DNA of 64,000 nt, taken from Chitinophaga pinensis (lineage in GTDB: Bacteria; Bacteroidota; Bacteroidia; UKL13-3). Location of the stretch: positions 51,897-115,896 of the forward strand of contig CAMARW010000008.1 of NCBI GenBank assembly GCA_945860865.1, given 5' to 3'. Below are positions 4,630 to 64,000 of the stretch, piece by piece. Within the stretch, counting starts at the first letter, position 1, and each line of letters begins with the position of its first letter. A model generated the notes under the pieces. That model was not told the origin of the DNA and made no database searches. It was given only the letters and a program-made list of their open reading frames with translations. The translations under genes were made by a program, and so were the position numbers.

Positions 4630-5595
4630 TTATATTTGTGCCTTCACCGCCGCTCTTTTTAACCTATCGTTTATAGCAAGGCCCAGATTTTCTTCTGGCA
4701 ATAGCTCGGCAATAATCAATTTTTTACCTAAGGTGTCTGCTTTTCTGATGGCCGCAAATAAGTTTTGCGCTGCCTCTGCATAATCGCCACTTTCGCTTAA
4801 AATAATTTGGTTCGAACCAATAATTTTTGGATGTTTTTGTTTGAACCCAATAAAGACCATTTCTGCATAACTGGCCTCGCCTAAATGGTTTTCTGCGGCA
4901 TCTAAATACAGCGGCGTTTGTGGGGCATAATGCCTGCTCAACATGCCAGGTGCTTGCGGATTTTCATTGTTAATGAGCATCGTTTTATCCAGCGTTTGGT
5001 TCAGCACTTGTTCTATTTTTTCTATAGATAAACCACCTAACCTAAGTAGTTTGGGGATGCCACCTGCAAACGTTATAATGGTAGATTCTAAACCCACCAT
5101 GCAGCGGCCGCCGTTTAATACCGCAGCTATTTGTGGGCCTAATTGTGCCTCCACATCTTGGGCGCTGGTTGGACTAACCGTTCCAGATAAATTGGCACTT
5201 GGCGCGGCCACAGGGAAATCCAAACTGGCTAAGAGTTGAAGCGTTTGCGGATGCTTGGGAATGCGAATGGCTACCGTATCCTGTCCGGCTGTAACCAAAT
5301 CGGGTATAGCATCACTTTTGGGCACTACAAACGTAATGGGTCCTGGCGAAAAAGCCTTAGCCAAAAGTAATGCGCTTTCTGGCAAATGTATGCCCCAATG
5401 AGTAAAACGCTCAAGCGAGTTGCTATGTAAAATTAAGGGGTTAAAATGTGGCCTGTTTTTAACCTGATAAATCTTAGCCACAGCCGCCACATCAAAAGCA
5501 TTGGCAGCCAAACCGTAAACGGTTTCGGTAGGTATGGCAAGCAAGTTACCTTGCATTAAAATGTTTTTTGCTAAAGCTATATCTTCAATAATCAT
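4630..5595 (-). CDS. sua5: L-threonylcarbamoyladenylate synthase (Sua5/TsaC2)
   Basis: PTETVYGLAANA, KNRPHFNPLI, AAPSANLSG, APGMLSRHYAP and a C-terminal SUA5 domain. Confidence 0.93.
   Translation of the reverse strand: MIIEDIALAKNILMQGNLLAIPTETVYGLAANAFDVAAVAKIYQVKNRPHFNPLILHSNSLERFTHWGIHLPESALLLAKAFSPGPITFVVPKSDAIPDLVTAGQDTVAIRIPKHPQTLQLLASLDFPVAAPSANLSGTVSPTSAQDVEAQLGPQIAAVLNGGRCMVGLESTIITFAGGIPKLLRLGGLSIEKIEQVLNQTLDKTMLINNENPQAPGMLSRHYAPQTPLYLDAAENHLGEASYAEMVFIGFKQKHPKIIGSNQIILSESGDYAEAAQNLFAAIRKADTLGKKLIIAELLPEENLGLAINDRLKRAAVKAQI
4807..4820. repeat. Dispersed palindrome TTGGTTCGAACCAA (copy 1)
   Basis: Exact 14-bp palindrome inside sua5 (encodes GSNQ). Confidence 0.85.
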
Positions 5596-5684
5596 CTCAG
5601 CTGCAAAGTAACAAGATTTAACCTTAGTTTTATTTTGATTGCGTACGCAAAATAATAAATGCTTTAATAGGCTTACACCATTAA

Positions 5685-6572
5685 CTAACTAAATCTAGGT
5701 GAAACAACCAATTCTTTTGAACCTGGTGTATAAACATAAAAACCTTCTCCAGATTTAGCTCCCAAAATACCAGCCGTTACCATATTCACTAAAAGCGGAC
5801 AAGGTGCATATTTAGTATCCCCTAAGCCTTCGTAAAGCACATTCATAATGGCTAAACATACATCTAAGCCAATAAAATCTGCTAATTGTAACGGGCCCAT
5901 TGGGTGAGCCATACCTAGTTTCATAACGGTATCTATAGATTCTACCGATCCCACGCCACTTTGTAAACAAATGATGGCTTCATTAATCATTGGCATTAAA
6001 ATACGATTGGCAATAAAGCCAGCATAATCGTTGGCCTCTGCAGGAATTTTACCAATTGCTTTAGATAAATTTACTACTGCTAAACTTACCTCTTTAGCTG
6101 TTTTATATCCATTAATTATCTCTACCAATTTCATTACCGGTACTGGGTTCATAAAATGCATGCCAATTACTTTGTCTGGGCGCTTAGTAACACTCGCAAT
6201 TTTAGTAATAGATATAGAGGAAGTATTAGATGCTAAAATACAATGTGCCGGCGCATACTCATCAATTTGTTTAAAAATATCAAGTTTGATATTAATGTTT
6301 TCGCTGGCCGCTTCTATAATTAAATCTGCATGGCTGCTTGCTTCTTTTAAACTCGTAAAAGTAGTAATATTGGCTAATGTAGTTTGTTTTATATCTTCTG
6401 TAATACTGCCTTTAGATACCATTCTGTCTAAATTTTTACCAATGGTTTCAATGGCTTTCTTTAATTGAATTTCATTCACATCAATTAAATTAACTTGGTA
6501 ATTGTTTTGCGCAAACACATGTGCAATTCCATTGCCCATTGTTCCTGATCCTATAACTGTTATGTTCTTCAT
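5685..6572 (-). CDS. hbd: 3-hydroxybutyryl-CoA dehydrogenase
   Basis: VIGSGTMGNGIA NAD-binding motif, SNTSSISI, GMHFMNP, HPMGPL. Start refined to ATG at 6572 (MKNITVIG). Confidence 0.92.
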   Translation of the reverse strand: MKNITVIGSGTMGNGIAHVFAQNNYQVNLIDVNEIQLKKAIETIGKNLDRMVSKGSITEDIKQTTLANITTFTSLKEASSHADLIIEAASENINIKLDIFKQIDEYAPAHCILASNTSSISITKIASVTKRPDKVIGMHFMNPVPVMKLVEIINGYKTAKEVSLAVVNLSKAIGKIPAEANDYAGFIANRILMPMINEAIICLQSGVGSVESIDTVMKLGMAHPMGPLQLADFIGLDVCLAIMNVLYEGLGDTKYAPCPLLVNMVTAGILGAKSGEGFYVYTPGSKELVVSPRFS

Positions 6573-6590
6573 TATTAAATTAATTAAGCA

Positions 6591-6598
6591 CAAATGTA
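6591..6598 (-). promoter_or_regulatory. Bacteroidota sigma70 -7 box (TACATTTG) for hbd
   Basis: Matches TAnnTTTG, 18 nt upstream of the start. Confidence 0.55.
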
Positions 6599-6656
6599 TA
6601 AAAGCCGTTTCATTAAAAAAGTTATATCTTAAATCAATTTACTCACAAGAATGTTT

Positions 6657-6664
6657 TAAATTTG
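6657..6664 (+). promoter_or_regulatory. -7 box (TAAATTTG) for the M43 peptidase gene
   Basis: Matches TAnnTTTG, 5 nt before ATG 6670. Confidence 0.5.
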
Positions 6665-6669
6665 AAGTG

Positions 6670-8079
6670 ATGCAAAAATTAAAATTTATTTTTCTGTTTT
6701 TTAGCGTTTTACCGCTTTCCTTATTGGCTCAAGAACTATCTTGTTACCATAAATTTACGCCTAAGCAAATTCAAAATCTACAGGTTTTTCAACAAAAATT
6801 GCAAAGTGGAAATCCAATTAGTCTTCAAAAAAGCACTCAATTTGTTCCCCTAAAGGTACATATTGTTGGAAACTCAGCCGGAGTTGGATATTATTCTATC
6901 AATAATTTAATGCTTGCCCTTTGCGAAATAAATGAGCGTTTTGCCTCTGTAGGGTTTCATTTCTATTTGGCTCAACCCGTTACATATATAAATGATGATG
7001 CGCTAAACAGAGCAGATTTTGATGCCATTTATGATGTAGCATACGCAGCAAAAGTGCCTGGTATGGTTAATGTTTATTTTCATAATGCTGGAAATGTTTG
7101 GTGCGGGGTATATTTTGGAGATTTAGATATTGTTTTAGTTAAAAATTCTTGCCAAATGCCCATGGCTACCACACTGGCGCATGAACTTGGCCATTTTTTT
7201 GGATTGCCTCATACTTTTTTAGGATGGGAGGGTGGAAATACACCAGCATCTGCTGATATTGAGCGTTTAGATGGTAGCAATTGTAGAAGTGCTGGTGATG
7301 GTTTTTGTGATACCAAAGCCGATTATGTTTCTCAAAGATGGTCTTGCCCATTATCATATAACCTCACCGATCCAATTGGCCAAATTTTTAAACCAGATAG
7401 TTCTTTGTATATGAATTATGCTAGTGATAATTGTCACAGTAGGTTTAGTGCAGAGCAGATTTTAGCTATGCAAAATGATTTACTAAACAGACGTATTTCA
7501 AAAACTTCTGCTTTCAATAGTGTCTTAACTCCACCTCAAAAGATAACGCCACTAAACCTCGATTCGAATGTGAACACTAAAAATACTCTTTTTAAGTGGA
7601 ATGCCGTTCCAAATGCTTTTGCCTACCACCTACAAATTGCTCGTTTTGGAGACTGGAATTTTTTAAATGTTGATCGTTTGCTTACAGATACTTTTGCTCA
7701 GGTAAATTTATTCGGAAATTGGCCTTTTGCCTGGCGCGTAAAAGCAATAAGCGAGGGAAATACTTGTTCTGTTTTTGGTTCAATAGATACTTTTTATACT
7801 TCAGAGCAACAAACAGCTGTTTCTGAAATAACAGGGGCTAATATGCCCAGCCTTTTTCCTAATCCTGTTAGAAAAGATGACGTATTAACCCTCACTAATT
7901 TGGGTATAGGTACAATCAATATATACCATGCCCAAGGTAAATTATTACATACTCTGCAAGCATACACAAGTGGCCCTTTAAGCATTCAAATGCTTGGTTG
8001 GGAGCAAGGTGTTTATTTTGTAGAATTTATCGGTTCGAGCCGAAGGTTTATTCAACGGTTTGTTATTCAGGAAAACTAA
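6670..8079 (+). CDS. M43 (pappalysin/ulilysin-like) zinc metalloprotease with T9SS type A CTD
   Basis: Signal peptide MQKLKFIFLFF..., HELGHFFGLPHTF zinc motif, GDGFCDT, YMNY Met-turn, FN3-like segment, LFPNP...GVYFVEF CTD. Confidence 0.85.
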   Translation: MQKLKFIFLFFSVLPLSLLAQELSCYHKFTPKQIQNLQVFQQKLQSGNPISLQKSTQFVPLKVHIVGNSAGVGYYSINNLMLALCEINERFASVGFHFYLAQPVTYINDDALNRADFDAIYDVAYAAKVPGMVNVYFHNAGNVWCGVYFGDLDIVLVKNSCQMPMATTLAHELGHFFGLPHTFLGWEGGNTPASADIERLDGSNCRSAGDGFCDTKADYVSQRWSCPLSYNLTDPIGQIFKPDSSLYMNYASDNCHSRFSAEQILAMQNDLLNRRISKTSAFNSVLTPPQKITPLNLDSNVNTKNTLFKWNAVPNAFAYHLQIARFGDWNFLNVDRLLTDTFAQVNLFGNWPFAWRVKAISEGNTCSVFGSIDTFYTSEQQTAVSEITGANMPSLFPNPVRKDDVLTLTNLGIGTINIYHAQGKLLHTLQAYTSGPLSIQMLGWEQGVYFVEFIGSSRRFIQRFVIQEN

Positions 8080-8650
8080 GAAAGTCTTCTGGTGTATCAA
8101 AACTTTTACAGATTTGTATTTGCGCAGGGTTTATTTTTATGGCAGCTATTTTATTTAAAAACTCCTGTAATGAAAATTGTTGTGTTTGATAAGCCTCTTG
8201 CAAATACTTAAAATCTTTTGGATGATAAATGGCCAATAAAGGTTCATATTTTAATGAATCTTTAGAATAAAAGGCCACACTTTGTTCAAACGTTTCATGC
8301 GTTTGTATAAGTTGTTCAATATCTTCTATTCTTAACAGTGGATAGTCGCAGCCCAATAATAAAATGGGCCTATTGGGTAGTTTGTTTATACTGCTCATTA
8401 ATCCAAGCATAGGCCCATTAAAGCCAAGATTTTCATCGTCAAAAATTAAAATGGTTTCTTTGTCAAACCACTCTTGATGGGCTTTTTTACAAGATACGGC
8501 AGCATCTATCCCTAATTGCTTGCAAAGTTGTAAAACCCATTTATATTGAGGCATTCCATGGTAATGAAGAAGGGCTTTTGATTCTCCCATTCTTAAACTA
8601 TTCCCTCCACATGTAATTACTGCATTGATGCGAGTTGGGTAAGTTTCCAT
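8063..8650 (-). CDS. mobA: Molybdenum cofactor guanylyltransferase-like NTP transferase
   Basis: CGGNSLRMGESKALL, GPMLGL, LGCDYP, EPLLAIY, FDTPED motifs. Confidence 0.75.
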   Translation of the reverse strand: METYPTRINAVITCGGNSLRMGESKALLHYHGMPQYKWVLQLCKQLGIDAAVSCKKAHQEWFDKETILIFDDENLGFNGPMLGLMSSINKLPNRPILLLGCDYPLLRIEDIEQLIQTHETFEQSVAFYSKDSLKYEPLLAIYHPKDFKYLQEAYQTQQFSLQEFLNKIAAIKINPAQIQICKSFDTPEDFLSFPE

Positions 8651-8665
8651 GTTGTAAATATTGAA

Positions 8666-9970
8666 TTAAACCAAACTTAATTGCTTTACTTTAACAAGCA
8701 TATCAGCTGTTATTTGCTCTAATTGTACTTCCATAATTTCATTCACCAATGAAGGGTCGTAATTAGTTTGTACTTTTACATAATTGCTGGTAAAACCATA
8801 CATTATATCTTGGTCATTTTCTGCCTCCCATAACACTGGAAATTTTTTCTGTAATTGTTGCTCATAAAAAAATCTTCTTTTTTTATCACTTAAAATATGC
8901 AACATTTTACTGCGTTCATTGCGGGTTTTCATGGGTACTTTGCCCGGTAATTTTTGTGCTGTTGTATTCACTCTTTCGCTATAGGTAAATACGTGCAGGT
9001 ACGAAATATCTAATTGGTTCAGAAAGTTATAGGTCTCTAAAAAAAGCTCGTCTGTTTCTCCAGGATATCCAATTATAACATCTACACCAATGCAAGCTTG
9101 TGGCATCAATGTTTTAATTTTTTCAATGCGTGAGCGGTACAAACTTGTATCGTATTTGCGGCGCATGCTTTTTAATAATTGGTCTGAACCGGATTGCAAT
9201 GGGATATGAAAATGCGGAACTACACACTTACTTTTATTAGCAACAAATGCGATGATTTCATCGGTTAATAAATTAGGCTCAATACTACTAATTCTTAACC
9301 TTGCCAAGCCTTCCACCTCGTCTAATGCTTGAAGCAACTGATAAAAGTTTTCTGTTGTGCCCGAACCAAAATCTCCTGTGTTAACGCCTGTTAAAACAAT
9401 TTCTTTGGTTCCTTGTGCTACAATTTCTTGTGCCTGTTTTACTACATTAGCAATGGTGTCGCTTCTGCTAGCACCTCTAGCAAGGGGAATCGTGCAAAAG
9501 GAACAAAAATAATCACAACCGTCTTGCACTTTTAAAAAGGTTCGGGTTCTATCTCCAATAGAATAGGAGGCATGGTAATCTAAAACTTCTTTAATTTTAC
9601 CTTCTTTTACAATGGCAGTTTCTAGTTTTTTAGCTTCACCAATGTAATCGCTAATGTTGAATTTTTCGGCGGCACCCAAAACCAAATCTACGCCTTCAAT
9701 ATTAGCTATCTCTTGTGGTTTTAACTGGGCATAACAACCAATAACTGTAACAAATGCATTTGGATTATGGCGTAAGGCTTCTTTTACAATTTTTTTGCAT
9801 TTTTTGTCGGCATTGTCTGTAACCGAACAAGTGTTGATTACATATACATCTGCGCCTTCATGAAAATCTACTTTTTTATACCCTTCGGCACTTAAGCTTC
9901 TACCAATGGTAGAGGTTTCAGAAAAATTGAGTTTGCAACCCAGGGTGTAAAAAGCAACAGATTTTTGCAT
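8666..9970 (-). CDS. mtaB: tRNA t6A37 methylthiotransferase MtaB
   Basis: TLGCKLNFSE, INTCSVT, radical-SAM CDYFCSFC, RISSIEP. Start refined to ATG 9970. Confidence 0.92.
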   Translation of the reverse strand: MQKSVAFYTLGCKLNFSETSTIGRSLSAEGYKKVDFHEGADVYVINTCSVTDNADKKCKKIVKEALRHNPNAFVTVIGCYAQLKPQEIANIEGVDLVLGAAEKFNISDYIGEAKKLETAIVKEGKIKEVLDYHASYSIGDRTRTFLKVQDGCDYFCSFCTIPLARGASRSDTIANVVKQAQEIVAQGTKEIVLTGVNTGDFGSGTTENFYQLLQALDEVEGLARLRISSIEPNLLTDEIIAFVANKSKCVVPHFHIPLQSGSDQLLKSMRRKYDTSLYRSRIEKIKTLMPQACIGVDVIIGYPGETDELFLETYNFLNQLDISYLHVFTYSERVNTTAQKLPGKVPMKTRNERSKMLHILSDKKRRFFYEQQLQKKFPVLWEAENDQDIMYGFTSNYVKVQTNYDPSLVNEIMEVQLEQITADMLVKVKQLSLV

Positions 9971-9979
9971 ATCGGACTG

Positions 9980-9987
9980 CAAATATA
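9980..9987 (-). promoter_or_regulatory. -7 box (TATATTTG) for mtaB
   Basis: TAnnTTTG 9 nt upstream of the start. Confidence 0.55.
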
Positions 9988-10056
9988 GGGGAGAAATAGA
10001 AAATTCTACATGCTAAATCCGAAAACTACCCGCAAGCGCATTCTCCCCATTTCAAT

Positions 10057-13000
10057 TTACATAAGATTCAATTTCTTTATTATTACTTCATTACCCATTT
10101 TGATGTGCAATACATACATGCCTGGATTTAATCCAGCTAAAGGTAATTGAATGGCTGCTTTGTTTGCATCCTGTTTAATGCTAGGCCAAATTTTAACTAA
10201 ACTACCTGTTAAGGTGTATATTTCAATAGCATCTATCGTATTGGCTTCACCCGTTTTTATCCAAACAGCGTCTGAAGCGGGATTAGGATAAATTTGGATA
10301 GTATTTTCAATGCCATCGGCCTGTACCATTCTGGTTCCTAAATCTGTTTTTGTGCCATCAAAATCTACTTGCCATAATTTATAATAAAGCCTTGTATTAG
10401 CATTTAGTAAATCTTTATCCAAATGCTGGTAACTTGTTAAGCTATTCGAATTTCCTTTTCCTTTATAAAAAGTAATTGGTTCAAACCGAATGCCATCGTA
10501 CGACCTTTCTATATAAAATCCTTTGTTATTAATTTCTGTTGATGTTTGCCATTTAACTAAAACATCACTACCCATGGTACTTAACGCAAACTTTGTAAGT
10601 GATACAGGTAATGGATGAGATATTGCCTCATCGCATCCCATATAGGGTTTAAAAGCATCGCGTGGTTGGTGGTCTATGTCAAATCCTAAACGAGGAATTG
10701 GCATGCAAACCAATGCTGTATCACCCAATGAAGTTCCAGCTAAACGTAAATTCCATGGACTCACAAATTGCACCTGTTTGCTTCTAGAATTTGAATTGGT
10801 ATTTGTTGCGGTGGCAAAGGCTGCTAAGCTTGCATAATCTGTAGCGGAAGCATTTCCCACAAATCCATTATTTCCGTTTGCAAAAAGTAAATTCCTATTC
10901 ATAATTGGATTACTGCCTGTCCAAAAATAGGCCGCATAATGTTTGGTGCCCATTGCACTGATATTGCTGCGCTCGTTAATAAAGATATTGTTGAATACAG
11001 AATCTTGTTGGTTTCCTGTAATAGAAAGGTATGCTGCCGTATATTCGGTGCCTGTATTACTTACATTTTCACCAGAAATTTTCACCGTATTATAGAATAT
11101 TTTATTGGCAGTTCCATCTTTTGAAATGCCCCAATACAACACATTACCTGTGTTCGCATTGGATGCACTGTCTGTACCTAAATGAATCTCATTGTGATGC
11201 AATTGCATATTTGGACCCGAAACAAGGATGCCTCTTACTCTTGTTGCCGTATTGGCTAGTGGACCAATGCCAAAAACAGAATTCCGAGAAACCTCAATAC
11301 TGTTTCCAAATATTTGAATACCAGTAGTTATACCAGATGGAATACCACTGGTATAAATTTGAGAAACACGGTTGTCTGTTACGATTCGTTGTCCGGCAGA
11401 ACCACTGCCCGCATTAATACCATATAAGAAAATGAAATTAGGATTAATTAAACTAGCGTTGCTAGGAATATGGTAAAGCTTCTGTACCACATTATTTCTG
11501 ATAATATAAGGGGTAATGCCAGTATGAAAAATGCCATTTAATGCTTTAGAATGATGCATGCTATATTGTAAGTTGCTAACGGTATTATTTTCTAATAGCA
11601 AATGTTGCCCATTATGCACGGTAAAGTCTATTCCACTCAAATCGCCATTACAGGCCAAGCTAATACTTCCTTGGGTTTGGTTCGAACCAATAAAGTTATT
11701 TCTTACTATAAAATTACCCGAACTGGCATTGAAACGCATTCCGTATAAGTTAAGGAGGCCTCCGCCAATAGCCTGAATGGATCCAATGCGGTTATTGATG
11801 AGTTGAACAGAATCTAAAGCTGAACCGAAACTGCTGCCAATATTAATGGCGCTGAAGCCTGCCGTGCCAACTGGATTGGTATAATTAATTAGAATACTTG
11901 CAAGGCCAGTATCAGATCCTAAAATATTGTCTTCTATCAAAAACTTTCCATTTAAAACGCCAATTAAAGAATTGTTTAAGTTATTAAACAAACCTGTAAA
12001 CTGAATTCTTCTAAAGGTGTTTTGCCTAACTGTTAAATCTAAGCCTTGTAGCATCATGAGCCAAAAAGTGCCCGATGTGCCATCAAATTGAGTTGGTTGC
12101 GCGCCACCACAATATGCGGCAGAGCCCCCAAAGAAATTATTGGATATCAATCCGCCATTGGCTGAATAAGAGATAAAAGAAAAATTACCAGCATGTGTGT
12201 AGGTGGAATTTTTATAAAAGCTATTTCCTGAAATAGTAAAATTTTCATTGTTGTTATCCACTAAAATTCCAAAGTTATTAGGGTTGGCAATTTCATTATT
12301 AGAAATAACATTATTACTCGATAGTGCTTGAGAAGGACCAGTAGAAGCTTGTGCTGAAATACAAACTCCAGGCCGAGTGCTAGGGCTAAAAGCGCCAATT
12401 AAGCAACTATCAATTACATTATTGTCATTTCCTGTTACCAATCTATTGCCAAATTTAACAATGCCATCACTATTTAAAAATGGGTCACTGTATAAGTTGC
12501 AATTTCTAATTTGATTAAACGAAGCATCATTTTCAAACAGCACACAAGGGCCACCAGTAGTATTTCTTATCGTAATTTTTCTTCCGGCATTGCTTAGTGT
12601 ATCTGAACCATTGATACTAATAAAGCTACATCCATTTAAGTTAAATACTGCCGGATACCCAGAACCAGTTATACTTACCTGAACGCCATTGGCTGGTCTT
12701 ACACTTATGGTATGGGTAGCACTCACTCCTTGAATAAGGTTTGAAAATGTAAAAGGAAAAGTTTCTGTAGGGGGAGAATAAGTGCTTTGCGTGAGCAAAA
12801 AAGTAACTGGGGCAGAAACCCCTCTTTGATTAAGATCGGTAATTGCTGCAGTTAAAGTTGAATAGTTGCCACCTGTTCCAACTCTATAAATACCGGCTAA
12901 GGGTGGTGCTACAATTCTAAATCTAAAAGGGTTTGTGGGAGGCGTTAATAGGCTATCCATGCTCACACTGGTAAAGCCCAATGATGGCAATGCCGCATAA

Positions 13001-53632: not shown

Positions 53633-53653
53633 AAAATAATTTAAACCAAAAAC

Positions 53654-53995: not shown

Positions 53996-54011
53996 ATTGT
54001 GGGTATAAACC

Positions 54012-54611
54012 ATGATTAAAGTAGGCATTACAGGCAATATTGGCAGTGGTAAATCTACCATTGCCAAATTGTTTGCCCTTTTGGGTACTCCTGTTTATGA
54101 TGCAGACACCAGAGCCAAGGCCATTATGGTTGAAGATATTGAGCTCAAAAATGAGCTTGTGAAGGTCTTTGGGCAAGAAACATATTTTGCAGATGGGCAA
54201 CTCAATAGAACTTACCTTTCGCAACAGGTTTTTAATAACCCCGCTCAATTAAAAATCCTCAATTCAATTGTGCACCCCGCTGTTTTCAGAGATTTTAATT
54301 GCTGGCAGAACCAATTCAAAACCGCACAATTGCCTTATGTTTTAAAAGAAGCCGCGTTATTAATTGAGAGCGGTTCTTACAAAGACTTAGATTGTTTAAT
54401 ATTGGTTCAGGCCGATGAAACGATTAGATTGCAGAGAAGCATGGACAGAGATGCTGCCAGTGCAGAGGCCATCTTAGGCCGTATGAAAAACCAAATGCCC
54501 CAAGAAAACAAAGTGCCTTTTGCAAAGTTCCTTATTCAAAATAATAACAACGATTTATTGATTCCGCAGGTGCTAAAAATCCATAGAGAGCTTTGTTTGC
54601 TGGGTGGTTAA
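54012..54611 (+). CDS. coaE: Dephospho-CoA kinase
   Basis: VGITGNIGSGKST, YDAD, LNSIVHPAV, KEAALLIE. Confidence 0.94.
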   Translation: MIKVGITGNIGSGKSTIAKLFALLGTPVYDADTRAKAIMVEDIELKNELVKVFGQETYFADGQLNRTYLSQQVFNNPAQLKILNSIVHPAVFRDFNCWQNQFKTAQLPYVLKEAALLIESGSYKDLDCLILVQADETIRLQRSMDRDAASAEAILGRMKNQMPQENKVPFAKFLIQNNNNDLLIPQVLKIHRELCLLGG

Positions 54612-54631
54612 ATGTTTAATTACTATTGCTA

Positions 54632-54655
54632 TTATTTTGGTTTCAACCAAAATAA
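54632..54655. terminator. Hairpin between convergent coaE and pcrA
   Basis: TTATTTTGGTT-TC-AACCAAAATAA. AT-rich stem, so terminator function is uncertain. Confidence 0.45.
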
Positions 54656-54695
54656 CAATCTATGCCTAAAAGGAGATATCTGAATAAAAAGGATC

Positions 54696-56975: not shown

Positions 56976-57025
56976 TCTTCAAAGGTAATTGGAAAATAAA
57001 ATATAGCAGTCCTAAGATTTCAACA

Positions 57026-57041
57026 TTTGGTTCGAACCAAA
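57026..57041. repeat. Dispersed palindrome TTTGGTTCGAACCAAA (copy 5)
   Basis: Exact 16-bp palindrome in the divergent pcrA/rsmH-like promoter region. Confidence 0.85.
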
Positions 57042-57120
57042 ACTTGGTGAATTTGTTTATTTGTAAAAATTTTATTGCGCAAAGTATTAATTTGCCTTGC
57101 TACATTGAAAAGATATTAAA

Positions 57121-58185
57121 ATGGATAACCAAGATTCGAAGCCAGTCCGGAGAGTTAGATATAAAGGAACTTATCCTAAAACATTTCAGGAGAAATACAA
57201 AGAATTACAGCCAGATAAATATACAGAGGATATAGAGAAGGTTATGCAAAAGGGTAAAACCCCAGCGGGTATGCATAGGTCTATTTGTGTGGATGAAATT
57301 ATAGAATTTTTACAGATTAAATCGGGGCAAATTGGATTAGATGCTACCTTGGGTTATGGCGGTCATTCGCTAGAAATGCTCAAGTGTTTGGATGGGAGCG
57401 GACAATTATTTGCCACAGATGTAGATCCTATTGAATTGCCAAAAACCAAAGAAAGATTGGCAGCATTGGGTTTTAAAGAACCCCTTTTTAATCCCCGCCA
57501 AATTAATTTTTCTGAGGTGGATACTTTAGCTGAAGAATCGGGTAAGCTAAATTTTGTGTTGGCAGATTTGGGCGTTTCTTCCATGCAAATAGACAATCCA
57601 GCCAGGGGCTTTTCTCTTAAAGTTGATGGTCCGCTTGATTTGCGATTAAACCCCCAAAGCGGAATTTCTGCAGCACAATTGTTAAAAAAGATTAAGCTTG
57701 AAACTTTATACGAGCTTTTGGTTTCAAATGCCGACGAGGTTTATGCCGAGCCTATTGCTTTGGCTATTATAGCCGCACAAAAAAACGGCTTGGTTATAAA
57801 AACCACGGGCGAATTGCGCAATATTATTCAAGAAGCCCTCGCTTTTTTACCTAAATCTGAGCGCGTAGAAGCCGTTAAAAAAGCTTGTACCCGTTGTTTT
57901 CAGGCGCTAAGAATTGAGGTGAACAACGAGTTTTTAGTACTCAATACTTTTCTAGAAAAACTGCCTTATGTGCTAGCGCCTCATGCACGTGTGGCTATTC
58001 TAAGCTTTCATTCTGGTGAAGATAGGCGTGTGAAGAAGGCCTTTCAAGCATTGCACAGGGCAGGTGTTTTTGAGCGCGTGGCACCAGATCCTATTAGGCC
58101 AACTTCAACAGAAATTTTTAATAATCCTAGGGCTCGCTCTGCCAAATTAAGGTGGGCCATTATGGGTGAAAATAGTTATGATTAA
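57121..58185 (+). CDS. rsmH: RsmH/MraW-family SAM-dependent methyltransferase with N-terminal extension (probable paralog)
   Basis: DATLGYGGHS, DLGVSSMQID, FQALRIEVN, SFHSGEDR, NPRARSAKLR. Not flanked by mraZ/ftsL. Confidence 0.8.
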   Translation: MDNQDSKPVRRVRYKGTYPKTFQEKYKELQPDKYTEDIEKVMQKGKTPAGMHRSICVDEIIEFLQIKSGQIGLDATLGYGGHSLEMLKCLDGSGQLFATDVDPIELPKTKERLAALGFKEPLFNPRQINFSEVDTLAEESGKLNFVLADLGVSSMQIDNPARGFSLKVDGPLDLRLNPQSGISAAQLLKKIKLETLYELLVSNADEVYAEPIALAIIAAQKNGLVIKTTGELRNIIQEALAFLPKSERVEAVKKACTRCFQALRIEVNNEFLVLNTFLEKLPYVLAPHARVAILSFHSGEDRRVKKAFQALHRAGVFERVAPDPIRPTSTEIFNNPRARSAKLRWAIMGENSYD

Positions 58186-58254
58186 TGGGTGTAAATAAAT
58201 AAACAGCCTTTTTAAGAAAATTTGTACTTTTGACTTCCCAATAAAAAATAAAAT

Positions 58255-59640
58255 ATGATTGATACCAATTATTTTACTGAAAACAAAGACCGTTTTTTAA
58301 CCGAGTTATTAGCCTTGTTGCGCATTCCTTCTATTAGTGCAGATTCTGCTTATAAATCGGATGTAATAGCTGCAGCAAACTTTATCAAAGACAAGTTAAT
58401 TATAGCGGGTGCCGATAAAGTAGAGGTTTGCGAAACAGCCGGTAATCCAATTGTATACGGAGAGAAAATGATTGATCCTAATTTGCCTACGGTTTTGGTT
58501 TACGGCCATTACGATGTACAACCAGCCGTACCATTAGAATTATGGGAAACGCCTCCGTTTGAACCTACCATTCGCCAAACCGCTATACACCCTGATGGTG
58601 CCATATTTGCCCGCGGTGCTTGCGATGATAAAGGACAGGTTTATATGCATGTTAAGGCTTTTGAAATGATGATGGCTACCCAAACTTTGCCTTGTAATGT
58701 AAAGTTTATGATTGAAGGCGAAGAAGAAGTTGGATCAACCCATTTAGGTCCGTTTTGCATAGCCAATAAAGAGCGTTTAAAAGCAGATGTTGTGCTTATT
58801 TCAGATACATCTATCATTGCCAATGATAGTCCAAGTATAGATTGCGGCTTGCGCGGATTAAGTTATGTAGAAGTTGAAGTTATGGGTCCAAACCGCGATT
58901 TGCACAGCGGAGTGTATGGCGGCGCTGTTGCCAATCCCATAAATGTTTTGGCTAAAATGATTGCCAGCATGCACGATGAGAACAACCACATCGCTATCCC
59001 TGGTTTTTACGATTTGGTTCAGAACTTAACGGATAAAGAAAGAGCAGCCTTAAACGAGGCGCCCTTTGATTTAGAAGCCTATAAAAAAGATTTGGATATA
59101 GCAGCTGTTTGGGGCGAAAATGGATACAATGTTTTGGAAAGAACCGGTATTAGGCCAACCTTAGATTGCAATGGCATTTGGGGCGGTTACATTGGCGAAG
59201 GAGCTAAAACAGTTTTGCCTTCTAAAGCATTTGCCAAAATAAGCATGCGCTTGGTTCCTAACCAAGATTCTGAAACCATTACGCAATTGTTTAAAAAGCA
59301 TTTTGAAAGTATTGCGCCTGCTGGGGTAAAAGTAATTGTGAGGCCGCACCACGGTGGCGAGCCCGTTGTAACTCCGATAGATTCGCCCGCTTATCTAGCT
59401 GCTGAAAAGGCCATGGAAACAACCTTTGGCAAAAAGCCAATTCCTACTAGGGGCGGAGGGAGTATTCCGATAGTGGCTTTATTTGAGCGTGAGTTGGGAT
59501 TAAAATCTGTGTTAATGGGATTTGGTTTAGATAGCGATGCCTTGCATTCGCCCAACGAACATTATGGCTTATTCAATTTTTACAAAGGCATAGAAACCAT
59601 TCCTTATTTCTTTAAGTATTTTACAGAACTTAAAAAATAA
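58255..59640 (+). CDS. M20 family dipeptidase
   Basis: YGHYDVQP, ARGACDDKGQ, EGEEEVGS, DLHSG, HSPNE. -7 box TACTTTTG at 58225-58232. Confidence 0.92.
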   Translation: MIDTNYFTENKDRFLTELLALLRIPSISADSAYKSDVIAAANFIKDKLIIAGADKVEVCETAGNPIVYGEKMIDPNLPTVLVYGHYDVQPAVPLELWETPPFEPTIRQTAIHPDGAIFARGACDDKGQVYMHVKAFEMMMATQTLPCNVKFMIEGEEEVGSTHLGPFCIANKERLKADVVLISDTSIIANDSPSIDCGLRGLSYVEVEVMGPNRDLHSGVYGGAVANPINVLAKMIASMHDENNHIAIPGFYDLVQNLTDKERAALNEAPFDLEAYKKDLDIAAVWGENGYNVLERTGIRPTLDCNGIWGGYIGEGAKTVLPSKAFAKISMRLVPNQDSETITQLFKKHFESIAPAGVKVIVRPHHGGEPVVTPIDSPAYLAAEKAMETTFGKKPIPTRGGGSIPIVALFERELGLKSVLMGFGLDSDALHSPNEHYGLFNFYKGIETIPYFFKYFTELKK

Positions 59641-59689
59641 TACTACTTATTGAAGGCTTGCGTTAGCATTAAACAAATGAAGAAAATAC

Positions 59690-62600
59690 ATGCGGCATTT
59701 AACTAGAGGATATTCCATTTTATGGGCGGTATTATGTTTGCTTTTATTTAATGTTAAAGTAGTAGCACAAAATAATTACGGCTTTGAATGGATTAAACCA
59801 TACCAACCGTATGTTAAAATAAAATTGCTCAAGGAAGGGATTTACCGCATCCAAGCAAGCGATTTGCCAACTTGGGCTACCCAAGACCCACGGAAGTTTC
59901 AGTTGTTTTGTTCAGGTAAAGAGCAACCCATTTTTGTGGCAGGGGAGAATGATGGCGTTTTTGGGTCGGGAGATTTTATTGAATTTTATGGTGCGCCCAA
60001 TGATGGTTTGTTAGACCGAGAAATGTTTACCAGTGCCAATGAGCAAGCGCAAATCTTTAAAAGTTTGTTTTCGGATACTGCCATTTATTTTTTAACGGTT
60101 TTACCCGATAGTAGTGTGCAACTTCCGCAAAGATTTGCTGCCTACAATGAGGCAGATTATACTAATTATACGGCCGAACCTAGTATGCGTGTGCAGCAGC
60201 AAATTGTGCCTCAGGAAGATTATTATTATGGCGCATTTATACCAGCTGAGCAAAAATATTACTTGTCAGAATATGCTGCTGCTGAAGGCATGATGAGTGC
60301 ACTTATTGGACAATCACAATCCAAAATTTACACTTTTGAAACACCTAATAAACTAGCTAATGCCTCGGCCGAGGTGGAGATAAAAATAATTGGTGCTTCC
60401 GATTTTTTTGTACCCAATCCCAGTGTGCCCAATCACCATGTGCGCATATGGATTTTGCCCGATGGGGCAAATGCAAGTGTATTGATAGATACTACTTTTA
60501 GGGGTTATGGCGAGCGTAAATTTAACCGGGTAATTGCAGCCAACTTGTTGGGTGAAACCACTCAGTTTAGGGTAGAAGTGATAAATGATATTGCAGTGGG
60601 TAGCGATTTTATTGGCATATCTTACTTGCAACTAAGCTATAACAGAAACAATTTAGCGCTGGCTAACATCGCTTCATTCTGGCTGCCTAAAACACAAGTG
60701 GGATTAAAAACGCTTGTTCAAATAAATAACTATCCCGGTAATCTTCCTTTGTTGTTTGATTTAACTCAAAAAAGAAGGGTTTTGGCCAACAAAAGCGGCA
60801 CATTTTTACAAGCATTATTGCCTTATAATGGCGCTATTAGTAAAATAATGTTGCAGGATGCTGCCGCTGTTTTTGCGCCAATAAGCATGGTTCCTCATCA
60901 ATTTGTGGTGCCAAACCTACTAGCCAATTACCAATATTTAATTGTTTCTAATAGGCAGTTGCAACAAGGTGCAGAAGCATACCAAGCATACAGAAATAGA
61001 AAGTATAGTACTTACATTGCCTATGCAGAAGATTTAGCTGATTATTATACATACGGACAATTTCACCCGCTGGCTATAAGAAAATTTTGCAAGCATTTAT
61101 TTGATAAACAGCAAAAGGCTCCGCAGTTTTTATTGCTATTAGGCAGAGGCTATCAAAATAATTTATTGAAGCTAAATCCAGAAACCAATGCCTTAAATTT
61201 GGTACCTGCTTATGGAGTTCCCTCATCAGATAATATGTTTACCAACGATTTTGCCACAAATAGCGGAGCGCCAAGCATAGCTACAGGTAGAATACCGGCC
61301 AGCAATTTACAAGAAGTAAACAACTACCTGCAAAAATTAATAAACCTAGAAACCCAATCAGATTCTATTGCTTCTTGGCGAAAAGACTTTCTGCATTTGA
61401 GTGGGGGTTCATTTGAATCGCAGCAAAATGAGTTTAGAAACCAGCTGGCTGCTATAGGCACATCGGTAAGAAGCAGGCCCGTAGGGGCAAGAATTTTCTC
61501 TTACTTTAAACGCAGTTCTGCTCCCACCGAGGGCGATTTAAAATCTGTATTACTTAAGCACCTTAACCAAGGGGTAAATATGATGACCTTTTACGGACAT
61601 GGGTCTTTAACAGTGCTCGATATGGATTTTGGTGGTATTAATGATTTGCAGGTAAATAATAAGCCTGCTTTTTATTATTTTAATGGCTGTAACATCGGTA
61701 ATGCCAACGATGTAGACCCACTAGGCACTGGGTTGGTTTATGGCAAAGATTATATTTGTGCAGCTAACAAAGGCGCTATTGGATGGTTGGCGCATACAAA
61801 TCTTACTTTTACCAACCAATTAAGTTTTCAAATGGGGCAATTATACCAGCAAATGGGTGTTGCCAATTATGGTTTACCCATTGGTTTACAAATTAAACAA
61901 GCGCTTCAATTTACTTCCCAAAGTAATGAGTTATTTGCCCGCTCACACGCATTACAATTGCTGTTACAAGGCGATCCCGCGCATACGCTTTACTCACCCG
62001 CAAAGCCAGATTATCAAATAGAAAATGCAAGCTTGTTTATTAGTCCAAACAATGCAACCGTACAAAGCGATTCTTTGGCTGTGGGTGTAATTGTAAAAAA
62101 CTTAGCCAAAGCAATATTAGATACCATACAAATTCAATTACAGCGCAAACTCCCCAATAACACAGTTCAATTATACGGCCTGAACCAAGTAATTGCGCCG
62201 CACCATACAGATACCTTTTACATTTGGGTAAAGCCCTTGTTAAAAAATGAAATTGGAGACAATTTATTTACGGTTAAAATTAATCCAACACAGCAAGTAG
62301 ATGAGATTAAGTATACCAATAATGAGGCAAGCTTTAATTACTTTTTGCCCGGCAGTGGCGTGCAGGCAATTTATCCAAAACCCTATGCTATAACCAACAA
62401 AGATTCTGTAGAATTGGTAATCCAAAACAACAACCTTTTTGTTGAACCTATGGAGTATCTTTTTGAAATAGATACCAGTGCTACCTTTAGTGGGGGTAGC
62501 GTTTTTTATCAAAAAAGTGCGCCTATTTTGAGCAAACATTTGGTGCGATGGAAAGTTAAAGTAAGCGGAACAGATAGTTTGGTTTACTATTGGCGCGCAA

Positions 62601-64000
62601 AAATAAACTTGCCAGAAAACCAAGGAGGTGTTTGGGTGCAGCAAAGTTTTACCTACATAAATAAGGGTAGAAATGGCTGGCATCAGCAACGGTATGAGCA
62701 AGTAAAAAATGCCAATGCTAAAACTTTTATCCAGTTTGAAGACACCACAAAACGCATCGTATTTAGCAATAATTCACTGGTTTTGGGTATTGAAAATAGG
62801 CGCTGGGATCATAGAGGAATGGGGGTAATTACTCCTTATTTATTAAATGCTGGAGTTGGATCTTGTATTTCTCAAGGAACTGTGGCTTTAGTTTTTGAAC
62901 CCTATCAAGTTGATTTCCCCTATGAATTACCTAATTACCCGTTTAATTGCGCTTTTGTACAAGCCAATAAAAACAACCAAAGTATCCGTTATTATTCATT
63001 TAATACAAATGTTTTAGAAGGTCAACAAGATTTAGCGCGCTTTGTAGATTCTATACCCAAAGGATATTATGTAGCTATGTTTTCTAGGTATAGCAGTGGT
63101 GCGCCCAATTGGATACCAGCACTAAAAGGTCAATTTGCTAAAATTGGTTCGGTAAAAGTGCCACAAATTTTAAATCCTAATTCAGCCTGGGCATTAATTG
63201 GAATTAAAGGGGAAGAACCTGGCAGGGCAATTGAAGATACCGTCACTAATAATGAACTTCAAAACACCCCAAATTTGCCTCCCGGACCAACAGATCCTCA
63301 AGATGTGATTAATTTAGATATTCGAAGAGAGTTAATTTTAAAATGGTATACCGGTAGTTTTACCTCGCAAGCTATTGGTCCGGCTACCAAATACAGTCAG
63401 TTAAACCTGCTTTTATCTGAACCAGACCCAAGCATTAGTGGCAGGTGGTGGTTAGATGTTATAGGAATTAATAAGCAAGGAAAAGATACGTTTATTTTTA
63501 GAAATCAAACCCAAACGCAGATAGATTTAAGTAGCATTGATGCTAAAAAATATCCATATTTAAAGCTGCAATTAGGGTTTGTAGATAGTACTTATAGAAC
63601 GCCCCATCAGGTAAAATATTGGCAGGTTTTGTATGAAGGTGGACCCGAGTTGAGTGTAGATGTAAATGCACAATATGCTTTTCATGCAAATAGCATAGAA
63701 AGAGGTGATAGTTTGCGCTTAACCTTGCCTATAGTAAATCTAGGAGAAAGCAGCGCAGATACTACAGAAGCTTTGTTTGAAATTTTAGATGAATCTCGAA
63801 AAATTCCCTATTCAAATTGGGTAAAAGTGCCTCCCATTTTAGCCAACGAAAGCGCTTTGGTTCGAACCAAAATACCCACGCAGTTATTAAGTGGAAAAAA
63901 CACTTTGCAGGTAAATGTAAATGCGAATAGAGCTGTTGAGGAATGGAGTTATTTGAATAATTTTTTAAAGCAAGATTTCACCGTAAATGCCGATGTTCAA
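59690..64000 (+). CDS. C25 (gingipain/PorU-like) cysteine peptidase, T9SS-associated (3'-truncated by window)
   Basis: Own translation: MRHLTRGYSILWAVLCLLLFNVKVVAQNNYGFEWI...EGIYRI, catalytic-type MMTFYGHGS (61580) and FNGCNIG, LLQGDP. The same frame gives coherent sequence at the start, middle and window end. Confidence 0.85.
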   Translation, partial: MRHLTRGYSILWAVLCLLLFNVKVVAQNNYGFEWIKPYQPYVKIKLLKEGIYRIQASDLPTWATQDPRKFQLFCSGKEQPIFVAGENDGVFGSGDFIEFYGAPNDGLLDREMFTSANEQAQIFKSLFSDTAIYFLTVLPDSSVQLPQRFAAYNEADYTNYTAEPSMRVQQQIVPQEDYYYGAFIPAEQKYYLSEYAAAEGMMSALIGQSQSKIYTFETPNKLANASAEVEIKIIGASDFFVPNPSVPNHHVRIWILPDGANASVLIDTTFRGYGERKFNRVIAANLLGETTQFRVEVINDIAVGSDFIGISYLQLSYNRNNLALANIASFWLPKTQVGLKTLVQINNYPGNLPLLFDLTQKRRVLANKSGTFLQALLPYNGAISKIMLQDAAAVFAPISMVPHQFVVPNLLANYQYLIVSNRQLQQGAEAYQAYRNRKYSTYIAYAEDLADYYTYGQFHPLAIRKFCKHLFDKQQKAPQFLLLLGRGYQNNLLKLNPETNALNLVPAYGVPSSDNMFTNDFATNSGAPSIATGRIPASNLQEVNNYLQKLINLETQSDSIASWRKDFLHLSGGSFESQQNEFRNQLAAIGTSVRSRPVGARIFSYFKRSSAPTEGDLKSVLLKHLNQGVNMMTFYGHGSLTVLDMDFGGINDLQVNNKPAFYYFNGCNIGNANDVDPLGTGLVYGKDYICAANKGAIGWLAHTNLTFTNQLSFQMGQLYQQMGVANYGLPIGLQIKQALQFTSQSNELFARSHALQLLLQGDPAHTLYSPAKPDYQIENASLFISPNNATVQSDSLAVGVIVKNLAKAILDTIQIQLQRKLPNNTVQLYGLNQVIAPHHTDTFYIWVKPLLKNEIGDNLFTVKINPTQQVDEIKYTNNEASFNYFLPGSGVQAIYPKPYAITNKDSVELVIQNNNLFVEPMEYLFEIDTSATFSGGSVFYQKSAPILSKHLVRWKVKVSGTDSLVYYWRAKINLPENQGGVWVQQSFTYINKGRNGWHQQRYEQVKNANAKTFIQFEDTTKRIVFSNNSLVLGIENRRWDHRGMGVITPYLLNAGVGSCISQGTVALVFEPYQVDFPYELPNYPFNCAFVQANKNNQSIRYYSFNTNVLEGQQDLARFVDSIPKGYYVAMFSRYSSGAPNWIPALKGQFAKIGSVKVPQILNPNSAWALIGIKGEEPGRAIEDTVTNNELQNTPNLPPGPTDPQDVINLDIRRELILKWYTGSFTSQAIGPATKYSQLNLLLSEPDPSISGRWWLDVIGINKQGKDTFIFRNQTQTQIDLSSIDAKKYPYLKLQLGFVDSTYRTPHQVKYWQVLYEGGPELSVDVNAQYAFHANSIERGDSLRLTLPIVNLGESSADTTEALFEILDESRKIPYSNWVKVPPILANESALVRTKIPTQLLSGKNTLQVNVNANRAVEEWSYLNNFLKQDFTVNADVQ
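63856..63871. repeat. Dispersed palindrome TTTGGTTCGAACCAAA (copy 6)
   Basis: Exact 16-bp palindrome inside the C25 gene (encodes LVRTK). Confidence 0.85.

Follow-up and report, generated by a model that had tools for sequence, protein, structure and literature searches.

Copies of the palindrome in the window

The window analysed here is a stretch of 64,000 nucleotides (G000:C8:51897-115896, with G000 as our label for the source genome) on contig CAMARW010000008.1 of the Chitinophaga pinensis assembly GCA_945860865.1, and the element in question is the 10-bp palindrome GGTTCGAACC together with a larger family of words built on the core T-N-GGTTC-R. Exact copies of the 10-mer begin at positions 4809, 11679, 25447, 31308, 57029 and 63859, and none occurred in 100 dinucleotide-preserving shuffles of the window. 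These six positions had been given in the initial annotation of this DNA, which also stated that five of the copies extend to palindromes of 14-16 bp (four of the type TTGG..CCAA and one TCGG..CCGA), that the coding copies use all three codon phases (GSNQ twice, RFEP and VRT) and that two copies are intergenic. All of these statements proved correct: GSNQ is encoded at 4809 and 11679, RFEP at 25447 and VRT at 63859, and both intergenic copies, at 31308 and 57029, lie between divergent genes (Table 1).

When one mismatch to GGTTCGAACC was allowed, the window contained 16 matches as compared with 0.73 +/- 0.86 expected, and eight of the ten one-off matches were the central CG-to-CA/TG forms GGTTCAAACC and GGTTTGAACC, referred to below as the A-form on its two strands. 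The density of the exact palindrome in the window is about 3x the genome average (six copies vs ~2 expected per 64 kb). The open reading frame (ORF) that holds the copy at 25447 is a genuine SpoU-type methylase ORF. No gathering-level match to Rfam was found within the window and a known RNA family as the source of the word was rejected for this reason.

Table 1. Positions of the palindrome and related words in the window, and of the island on contig C6 of the source genome
Feature	Position	Strand	Form	Context or remark
Palindrome copy	4807..4820		14-bp TTGGTTCGAACCAA	Inside Sua5/TsaC-type gene (4630-5595, minus); read G-S-N-Q
Palindrome copy	11677..11690		14-bp TTGG..CCAA	Inside gene for 2509-aa protein sorted by the type IX secretion system (T9SS) (10057-17586, minus); read G-S-N-Q
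Palindrome copy	25445..25458		14-bp TCGG..CCGA	Inside SpoU-type RNA methylase ORF (25050-25907, plus); read R-F-E-P
Palindrome copy	31308..31317		Palindromic over 10 bp only; flanks TT..TA	Divergent spacer between ABC-F ATPase gene (29197-31092, minus) and ribBA (31378-32604, plus)
Palindrome copy	57026..57041		16-bp TTTGGTTCGAACCAAA	Divergent spacer between UvrD-type helicase gene (54696-56975, minus) and rsmH/mraW (57121-58185, plus)
Palindrome copy	63856..63871		16-bp TTTGG..CCAAA	Inside Peptidase_C25-domain gene (59690 to beyond 64000, plus); read V-R-T
A-form	10478..10487	+	GGTTCAAACC (central CG to CA)	Identical words at 13149, 18424, 36258
A-form on minus strand	1603..1612	-	GGTTTGAACC on plus strand	Identical words at 15573, 28741, 42479
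One-transition variant	8032..8041	+	GGTTCGAGCC	Left half TCGGTTCG intact
AG-type variant	22855..22864	+	TTGGTTCAGGCC	Example site
AG-type sites	9181, 32926, 41103, 44538, 45420, 54404, 62177	either	GGTTCAGACC or GGTTCAGGCC	
Core word	370..63871	either	T-N-GGTTC-R	62 merged sites, ~1 per kb, six palindromes included
C6 island	L007:3458-10969 (G000:C6)			ParB_N-fused N6/N4 methyltransferase, helix-turn-helix (HTH) gene, two more methyltransferases, two no-family genes, tyrosine integrase

An asymmetric word in excess throughout the genome

The assembly of the source genome comprises 2,587,429 bp in 13 contigs (99.9% complete, ~36.5% G+C), and genes were defined by our own crude longest-ORF calls, which make up ~91% of the genome. 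GGTTCGAACC was found at 82 sites on 12 of the 13 contigs of this 2.59-Mb genome, whereas 0.65-1.6 sites were expected at Markov orders 0-4 and 4.9 at order 5 (both-strand counts halved). At order 3 it is the top 10-mer by z-score. Coding DNA contained 66 copies as compared with 3.5 +/- 2.6 (maximum 11) in 30 synonymous-codon shuffles, which were performed within each ORF and preserved protein sequence and codon usage. The initial annotation had proposed a DNA-level, frame-independent and genome-wide signal of the kind represented by highly iterated palindrome 1 (HIP1) of cyanobacteria or by DNA uptake sequences (DUS), and had named two outcomes that would speak against it, namely genome-wide counts that agree with a codon- and dinucleotide-aware null model and an enrichment limited to the window. 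Both are excluded, since the Markov, codon-shuffle and genome-wide counts all show the excess, and the proposed kind of signal is thereby upheld. As in palindromes of the HIP type, the excess of GGTTCGAACC is independent of reading frame and greater than one order of magnitude.

Related words were over-represented as well. TTGGTTCA occurred at 1018 sites against ~205 expected at order 3 (934 in coding DNA against 231 after codon shuffling) and TTGGTTCAG at 518 sites (486 in coding DNA against 52), while the order-3 expectation was 9.1 for the 175 sites of GGTTCAAACC, 1.8 for the 93 sites of GGTTCAGGCC and 1.7 for the 90 sites of GGTTCAGACC; GGTTCAGCC was found 234 times. Skewed composition generally creates frequent words, and beyond this general point nothing speaks for an artefact of composition, codon usage or peptide sequence. 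Such an artefact is already refuted: the nulls of Markov order 0-5, the dinucleotide shuffle and the synonymous-codon shuffle all fail to account for the counts, and relatives with similar G+C lack the excess. In addition, the 66 coding palindromes are distributed over three codon phases, 29 being read as G-S-N, 9 as F-E-P and 28 as V-R-T, in both gene orientations, and they make use of rare codons (TCG accounts for 8.9% of the Ser codons and CGA for 7.1% of the Arg codons).

Substitution of each position of TTGGTTCA yielded the core T-N-GGTTC-R, which is present at 2442 sites (1228 forward, 1214 reverse), that is 0.94 per kb, vs ~467 sites expected at order 1. All four bases at N gave 4- to 7-fold enrichment, the last position was enriched 7-fold as A and 5-fold as G, and the core is usually continued by R-N-CC. 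Around the palindrome, T at -2 is conserved at 97% and position -1 is T in 66%, C in 20% and A in 10% of the sites. Hardly any information is left beyond ~3 bp from the 10-mer, and the 16-mer TTTGGTTCGAACCAAA represents the ideal site. In a matrix of all GG-YYY-RRR-CC words, enrichment of at least 10-fold on at least eight copies was observed only with one arm exactly GGTTC (left TTC or right GAA), and the symmetric double variants GGTCTAGACC and GGCCTAGGCC had no occurrences. Because the enrichment is confined to the exact-TTC row or the exact-GAA column of this matrix, the unit is asymmetric. Its one exact arm, T-N-GGTTC, precedes purines and a final CC, and the palindrome is this word on both strands. 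The initial annotation had taken the palindrome for the basic element, which did not hold: one exact GGTTC arm suffices, the palindrome is a special case of the asymmetric word, and in the source genome itself the A-form is the more frequent of the two (175 vs 82 sites).

The two-stranded form is specifically favoured, as only zero spacing is enriched. GGTTC directly followed by GAACC was counted 82 times against ~2.8 expected for independent halves; inverted pairs at spacings of 1-30 were at background level (0-9 vs ~2.8 expected), as were everted and direct arrangements. The flanks of the 10-mer vary independently of each other, with 37 T/A pairs vs 36 expected and 5 C/G pairs vs 3.2 expected, and a hairpin or cruciform constraint was rejected on account of this lack of covariation between the two halves. 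Of the one-off variants, those with the central CG of the palindrome changed to TG/CA account for 175 sites and the other 14 single-substitution classes together for 86. The outer G and C are nearly invariant, GTTCGAAC being found 90 times, 82 of them within the full 10-mer. Second-arm variants differ from GAACC almost only via transitions, and the lowest observed/expected ratio among words neighbouring the core is 0.58.

Along the genome, the sites are distributed over 12 of the 13 contigs, and no obvious gaps were seen. Counts of core words in 10-kb intervals are near Poisson (mean 9.5, dispersion 1.23) and the gaps between them are exponential, with a median of 732 bp vs 753 bp expected, on 13 unordered contigs that limit tests of periodicity. 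The balance between strands is nearly equal. Short over-represented words spread over the chromosome are also known as Chi and as the FtsK-orienting KOPS, both of which are strongly co-oriented with replication. In contrast, 53-57% of the word sites described here are on the G-rich strand, and the word has a palindromic form in addition. The positive-skew part of contig C1 holds 419 forward and 365 reverse sites and contig C2 (negative skew) 117 forward and 156 reverse sites. Replication polarity is thus weak and a strong co-orientation of the Chi/KOPS kind was not seen.

Intergenic DNA makes up 8.9% of the genome and contains 16 of the 82 palindromes, a ~2-fold enrichment (p = 0.003). This enrichment, together with the position of both intergenic copies of the window in divergent promoter regions, is what would be expected if the perfect palindromes were operators of a transcription-factor regulon and regulated the neighbouring genes. 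However, the intergenic copies (seven in divergent, nine in tandem and none in convergent spacers) follow the length shares of the spacer types, 66 of the 82 palindromes are located inside genes in every phase, and the flanking genes are unrelated housekeeping genes. Furthermore, the palindromes are surrounded by a family of thousands of sites, and their positions are poorly conserved. A role as operator is therefore very improbable and largely refuted.

The poorest 10-kb window of the genome, with one core site, is the low-G+C start of contig C6, where the island listed in Table 1 is located. Two genes in it without an assigned family may encode nucleases. The island looks like an acquired restriction-modification island because of its low G+C, its three N6/N4 methyltransferase genes and its integrase. 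With one site in the 10-kb C6 island, the word is scarce in recently acquired DNA.

Phylogenetic range, dialects and turnover

The genus of the source genome (g1) comprises 25 genomes in our collection, the source genome included, and a further draw from the family comprised 80 genomes of 17 genera. The palindrome is present in all 24 other genus genomes in 3 to 311 copies, and 19 of them have at least 30. The low-palindrome members G010, G012, G021, G023 and G024 have 3-12 copies; restriction avoidance as a cause of palindrome-poor species was rejected, as TTCGAA is not depleted in G012, G021 and G024. Sixteen genomes of other families of the same class contained 0-6 palindromes. TTGGTTCA exceeded its reversed-word control in 24 of 24 relatives with 0.18-0.66 sites per kb, vs at most ~0.06 per kb in the 16 genomes of other families. 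Within the family draw, the density of T-N-GGTTC-R was 0.56-1.14 per kb in eight genus members and 0.84 per kb in G048, the sole genome of genus g25, as compared with 0.16-0.42 per kb, near the reversed-word control, in 71 genomes of 15 other genera. Forward-plus-reverse matches to GGTTCRAACC numbered 110-1507 in the eight drawn relatives, 94 in G048 and 4-53 in all others. The trait is confined to one genus and one neighbouring genus and is not a property of Bacteroidota in general. Among 66 related metagenome loci of at least 8 kb (~1 Mb in total; query protein 57-82% identical, the closest metagenome relative having 82% amino-acid identity), no palindrome was found and core words were at control level. 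A Lon-based search of genome contigs gave a single record from Bacteroidia (L008) beside 79 unrelated records, most of them proteobacterial.

Species differ in the preferred 3' continuation of the word, and we refer to these preferences as dialects. G017 has ~1320 sites of GGTTCAAACC vs 92 palindromes and G005, G009 and G013 are similar, so that in these four genomes ~660-1320 sites of GGTTCAAACC stand against 30-92 palindromes, a 10- to 25-fold difference. G014, G016 and G022 are rich in palindromes (272, 311 and 186 copies, respectively) and relatively poor in TTGGTTCA. In the source genome and the relatives nearer to it several forms are mixed, AG-type forms among them. The occurrence in a single clade with species-level dialects (24 of 24 relatives within g1, plus G048) is as found for DUS and for the uptake signal sequences (USS) of other bacteria.

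The closest relatives of the source genome have 77-80% DNA identity. In a 24-kb three-way alignment and in ~160 kb of BLAST-aligned blocks, positions orthologous to a copy often hold ungapped near-cognates of the same length, for example TTCGGTTTGAACCAAA, TTTGGTTCAAACCGAA and GGCTCGAACC. Their ungapped alignment shows that point substitutions, and not insertions, create and destroy copies, and these changes in place run against codon preference. The 10-mer at 25447 is exact in the relative G001 and is represented by GGCTCGAACC in G007 and by GGTTTAACCC in G019. G001 also retains the copy at 31308. G007 and G019 have none at that position, but a perfect copy of G019's own lies ~170 bp away in the same ABC-F/ribBA spacer. 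In 20 site-by-relative comparisons the palindromes of the source genome were exact twice, both times in G001 and at the two sites just named; one position was different in three further comparisons and two positions in one. As a side observation, GGATCAAACC occurs 40 times in the source genome, ~15x the order-3 expectation, and is the counterpart of a perfect GGTTCGAACC at two separate loci, of G007 at the first and of G019 at the second, so that independent loci show the same double change.

At ~78% identity, core words of the source genome were kept in 50 of 153 comparisons, as against 16 of 77 for the reversed control word and ~19% of random 8-mers. G014 and G016 (89% identity over 60.6 kb) kept 8 of 11 and 8 of 8 palindromes vs 42-45% of random or GC-matched 10-mers, and 45 of 64 and 45 of 62 core words vs 17 of 33 and 17 of 28 control words and 51% of random 8-mers. 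Conservation of the sites in orthologs, which the initial annotation had named as a check, was modestly above the controls at 89% and ~78% identity in these small samples and equal to the control at ~71% (see below). Maintenance by selection or by a continuing drive is, within these small samples, measurable and moderate, with positional turnover between species.

We also considered the word as a remnant or target site of a mobile element, either similar to repetitive extragenic palindromic (REP) sequences or miniature inverted-repeat transposable elements (MITE) or as a site-specific recombination site. Compared with G016, G014 has one insertion, of 1.66 kb, with a palindrome at both ends, as would be expected for such an origin. 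However, the core was present at both junctions in just 1 of 22 indels of at least 150 bp, with junction matches near chance, and a recombination or insertion site was rejected accordingly. Sequence conservation ends ~3 bp either side of the 10-mer, most copies (66 of 82) lie inside intact genes and the ungapped near-cognates in orthologs point to substitution. Neither the extended shared flanks nor the insertion nor the predominantly intergenic position of REP or MITE elements was found, and a mobile origin is scarcely credible. The segment of G014 itself (L203:8494-10186, G014:C6) carries a 441-aa ORF and an 81-aa ORF with cysteine motifs. It is bounded on both sides by GGTTCGAACC, the corresponding junction in G016 is a single TAGATCGAACC, and it could reflect a microhomology-mediated deletion or a targeted insertion. 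When viral contigs were scanned for TTGGTTCGAACCAA, at least 120 stretches matched; all 80 listed had one copy each and no high-density virus was among them.

Processes that could favour the word

A link to methylation, the second suggestion in the initial annotation, was not borne out. A methylation- or repair-linked ratchet, be it Elhai's HIP model or mismatch correction of the very-short-patch (VSP) type, would convert near-cognates into the word. It would agree with second-arm variants that are almost solely transitions from GAACC and with the predominance of the central CG-to-TG/CA change (175 vs 86), which fits deamination at methylated CpG, and a ratchet of this kind is proposed for HIP1 in the part of Elhai (2015; PMC4390886) available to us. 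The source genome, however, gave no hit to a C5 methyltransferase (PF00145; the sole weak match is the rRNA methylase RsmD), to Vsr or to the N6_Mtase family PF02384. Its genes with PF01555 or PF02086 are confined to the C6 integrase island, which encodes three N6/N4 methyltransferases; two of these, the 342-aa third excepted, were profiled and found in 0 of the 24 other genus genomes. A C5 methyltransferase scores above the cut-off in 7 of the 25 genus genomes, with no relation to dialect. G017 and G005 do not have one, yet they are rich in the A-form. Deamination of 5-methylcytosine as the cause of the A-form was rejected on the basis of this distribution. Moreover, TTCGAA is avoided in no genus genome and words neighbouring the core are not strongly depleted, their lowest ratio being that given above. 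The VSP-type effects known are smaller than 5- to 100-fold enrichment over ~10 positions. We consider the ratchet improbable.

Methyltransferases are of importance here also for the comparison with HIP palindromes: wherever these are abundant, a methyltransferase for the palindrome or its core is present, according to the accessible text of Elhai (2015; PMC4390886). No such enzyme accompanies the abundant palindrome in the methyltransferase families searched, which do not cover unknown families. Modification by phosphorothioation was considered in addition. The Dnd phosphorothioate motif is GAAC/GTTC, it is contained in the word, and the palindrome has both forms on each strand. We know of no over-representation of Dnd motifs, DndC (TIGR03183) was not found in the source genome and Dnd phosphorothioation was rejected for the latter reason. 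About 6 kb past the end of the window lies a gene for a small PD-(D/E)XK nuclease of the family PDDEXK_3 (L001:2226-2600, G000:C8; 124 aa).

A further explanation is a HIP1-like selected site. The palindrome and, more weakly, half-perfect sites would be bound by a DNA-binding protein specific to the clade, probably dimeric and serving in nucleoid organisation or segregation, and selection for site density would keep the word frequent. The ideal site is indeed the 16-bp palindrome TTTGGTTCGAACCAAA, zero spacing alone is enriched (82 vs ~2.8), the second arm mirrors the first in a degenerate form that preserves purines, with A at +2 enriched to 55-66%, and the flanks of the halves are independent, as they would be for two half-site contacts. 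The 82 perfect sites are within the range known for Noc and SlmA sites. Finally, sites outlast controls, an argument used for HIP1 in the portion of Xu et al. (2018; PMC5861425) at hand. On the other hand, an additive dimer model fails: GGTTCAGGCC, with three second-arm mismatches, is enriched 52-fold, whereas GGTTCGGACC and GGTTCAAACC, each with a single mismatch, are enriched 10-fold and 19-fold. The asymmetric A-form is dominant by 10- to 25-fold in most species, palindromes were exact in only 2 of 20 comparisons, the exponential gaps gave no sign of periodicity or of regional exclusion (in a 13-contig assembly that limits the test) and no candidate protein emerged. The sites NBS of Noc, SBS of SlmA, matS of MatP and parS of ParB resemble GGTTCGAACC as palindromic sites of 14-16 bp; unlike it, they are not embedded in thousands of half-perfect relatives. 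Such sites are restricted in position, being kept to certain chromosome regions or out of them. A family with thousands of members that turn over in position does not look like a small fixed set of protein-binding sites. A HIP1-like selected binding site is possible, but rather unlikely.

The most likely reading, which we put forward tentatively from the combined pattern, is a transformation- or recombination-linked self-recognition word, similar to DUS or HIP1, whose spread would be due to a sequence-biased process. In this view, the clade would have a DNA-handling system with sequence specificity that continually favours word-carrying DNA, and the word would then accumulate in any DNA resident for a sufficient time. 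The drive may be biased DNA uptake with subsequent homologous recombination, as behind DUS and USS and as recently proposed for HIP1, in which case the preferred DNA would be that carrying TTGGTTCRAACC. To our knowledge, this is the only well-established process of such a kind. The DUS/USS pattern fits best because the word is asymmetric, present at ~1 per kb, nearly strand-neutral, frame-independent, made by substitution, bounded to a clade, differentiated into dialects, scarce in acquired DNA and moderately maintained, and because no cognate methyltransferase accompanies it.

In agreement with this comparison, DUS and USS are asymmetric words of ~8-12 nt that occur about once per kb on both strands and in genes in all frames, are specific for a clade with dialects, are scarce in acquired DNA and are made by substitution. 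The GGTTC word likewise has ~9-12 nt and is distributed in both orientations over genes and spacers (0.94 per kb). Inverted DUS pairs that form terminators are a feature of Neisseria. The DUS of Neisseriaceae is a 12-mer with the core GCCGTCTGAA and the USS of Pasteurellaceae has the core AAGTGCGGT (these two sequences are also quoted in PMC7965970). In contrast to both, the word described here has another sequence and is from another phylum, and neither a pilus ATPase nor a secretin was found in the source genome. With ~5-fold enrichment of the core and 10- to 100-fold enrichment of the long forms, it also remains below USS and DUS. Of the competence-related genes, ComEC and two of the DprA family are present in the source genome, in line with a transformation-linked word.

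A number of points weigh against a word spread through uptake or recombination. ComEC and DprA also match in the control genome of Bacteroides thetaiotaomicron, and these genes carry little information because they are near-universal. Neither a secretin (PF00263) nor a PilB-like or type II secretion system (T2SS) E ATPase was found in the 99.9%-complete source genome, the best PF00437 score being 18.9 bits and thus below the 24.9-bit cut-off. The type IV pilus uptake machine that accompanies DUS and USS is therefore missing as far as secretin and ATPase are concerned (pilins were not searched), and the receptor would have to be non-canonical, since no type IV pilus genes were found. Terminator pairs as in Neisseria were rejected: convergent spacers hold none of the 16 intergenic palindromes, no spacing other than 0 is enriched and, instead of terminator-type inverted pairs, the word has its zero-spacing palindromic double form. 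This double form, with GAA as continuation, is enriched 100-fold, ~3x the 29-fold enrichment of GGTTCGAGCC with GAG and thus ~3x what an asymmetric pattern would predict. In its 3' part (R-R-R-C-C-R-A) the word resembles a mirror image of its 5' part made degenerate by transitions. Partial two-fold symmetry, the zero-spacing double form and the purine-preserving mirror arm suggest a dimeric reader, and this hints at a DNA-binding protein or enzyme as a better fit than a monomeric uptake receptor. At ~71% identity, core words were kept no better than the control (22 of 199 vs 10 of 109). The conservation samples were small, at 60-160 kb, and the organism is apparently known from assemblies only.

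Beside these competence-related genes we noted that the second DprA/Smf-family gene (333 aa; L202:17-2289, G000:C7) is situated directly downstream of a gene for a 424-aa protein with weak matches to haloacid dehalogenase (HAD)-type hydrolases and phosphoribosyltransferases (PRTase). This DprA-like gene and its HAD/PRTase-like partner presumably resemble a SLOG-type nucleotide-centred conflict system and not a competence gene.

HIP1 (GCGATCGC) is the closest parallel to the palindromic form in several respects. It is also a hyper-abundant short palindrome (15- to 300-fold, as compared with 50- to 100-fold for GGTTCGAACC), it is frame-independent, present in genes and spacers and lineage-specific with replacement forms, and it outlasts controls in close genomes, as GGTTCGAACC does by a modest margin in small samples. 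HIP-type palindromes have a quasi-periodic spacing of 10-90 kb along the chromosome. GGTTCGAACC is AT-richer, extends over 10-16 bp and showed no periodicity, in a fragmented assembly that limits this test; it further differs from HIP1 in that no conserved cognate methyltransferase was found and in that it is the minority form of an asymmetric word in most species. HIP1 sites are conserved between genomes above control motifs in the part of Xu et al. (2018; PMC5861425) that we could consult, and one-off variants of HIP1 concern the outer bases in the corresponding part of Elhai (PMC4390886), as opposed to the central CG in GGTTCGAACC. In the available portions of two recent sources, HIP1 is linked to transformation: it raises transformation in Synechococcus (bioRxiv 10.1101/2024.09.10.611283) and is proposed as an uptake sequence (PMC13756078).

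For Bacteroidota, the initial annotation knew of no description of the palindrome, and our full-text literature search gave none either. Among the matches listed, the exact word occurred only in tRNA, ribozymes or unrelated constructs, and the literature on iterated palindromes, uptake sequences and TTCGAA methylation in Bacteroidetes and Flavobacteria that was retrieved describes no such word. Riemerella, a member of the phylum, is naturally competent and prefers its own DNA, the one precedent for such a preference among Bacteroidota; the accessible part of PMC7965970 defines no uptake sequence for it and lists A/T-rich words only in its k-mer table. The known kind to which the element belongs is that of lineage-specific hyper-abundant words (DUS, USS, HIP1), and new is the GGTTC word in a genus of freshwater Bacteroidota. 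It is conceivable, albeit doubtful, that T-N-GGTTC-R-A-A-C-C with its dialects is the first sequence-defined uptake or self-recognition word of Bacteroidota, is read by a receptor outside any type IV pilus, and that natural transformation with kin discrimination shapes the genomes of freshwater bacteria that are abundant and for the most part uncultured.

Genomic words of such abundance are rare, and they are informative: sequence-specific DNA uptake came to light through DUS and USS, and HIP1, a puzzle for ~30 years, is only now being tied to transformation. The GGTTC case is clean, with 50- to 100-fold enrichment of the palindrome and ~1 core word per kb in a phylum without a described word, and it is distinguished by dialects over 25 sequenced species, by a sharp phylogenetic boundary and by the fact that neither of the usual companions, a cognate methyltransferase and a type IV pilus, was found. 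Because a clean excess, dialects, a sharp boundary and missing companions are combined here, the reader protein should be findable by phylogenetic profiling and DNA pull-down. The word also provides a concrete oligonucleotide with which transformation or kin recognition can be tested in freshwater Bacteroidota. It may serve as a lineage marker for binning and is a candidate aid to genetic manipulation, as HIP1 is in Synechococcus in the available part of the above preprint (bioRxiv 10.1101/2024.09.10.611283).

Several observations were made apart from the GGTTC word. A second over-represented word family in the source genome consists of tandem repeats of ACGAATT-type heptamers, with the 10-mers CGTAATTCGT and ACGAATTACG found 119 times each, and further frequent words (GTCCATAGTC and its relatives) derive from GTCCATA heptamers. 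Several palindromes are strongly avoided, namely AGGGCCCT (0 vs 7.3 expected) and GGGCCC, GACGTC and CATATG with observed/expected ratios of 0.45, 0.41 and 0.52, respectively, which suggests past or present restriction pressure at those sites. In the window, the longest-ORF calls place an Omp85-family gene at 22868-25384 (minus) and the SpoU-type methylase gene at 25050-25907 (plus), with 335 bp (25050-25384) shared between them. The SpoU domain matches begin at residue 42, and the real start of one or both genes probably lies further in.

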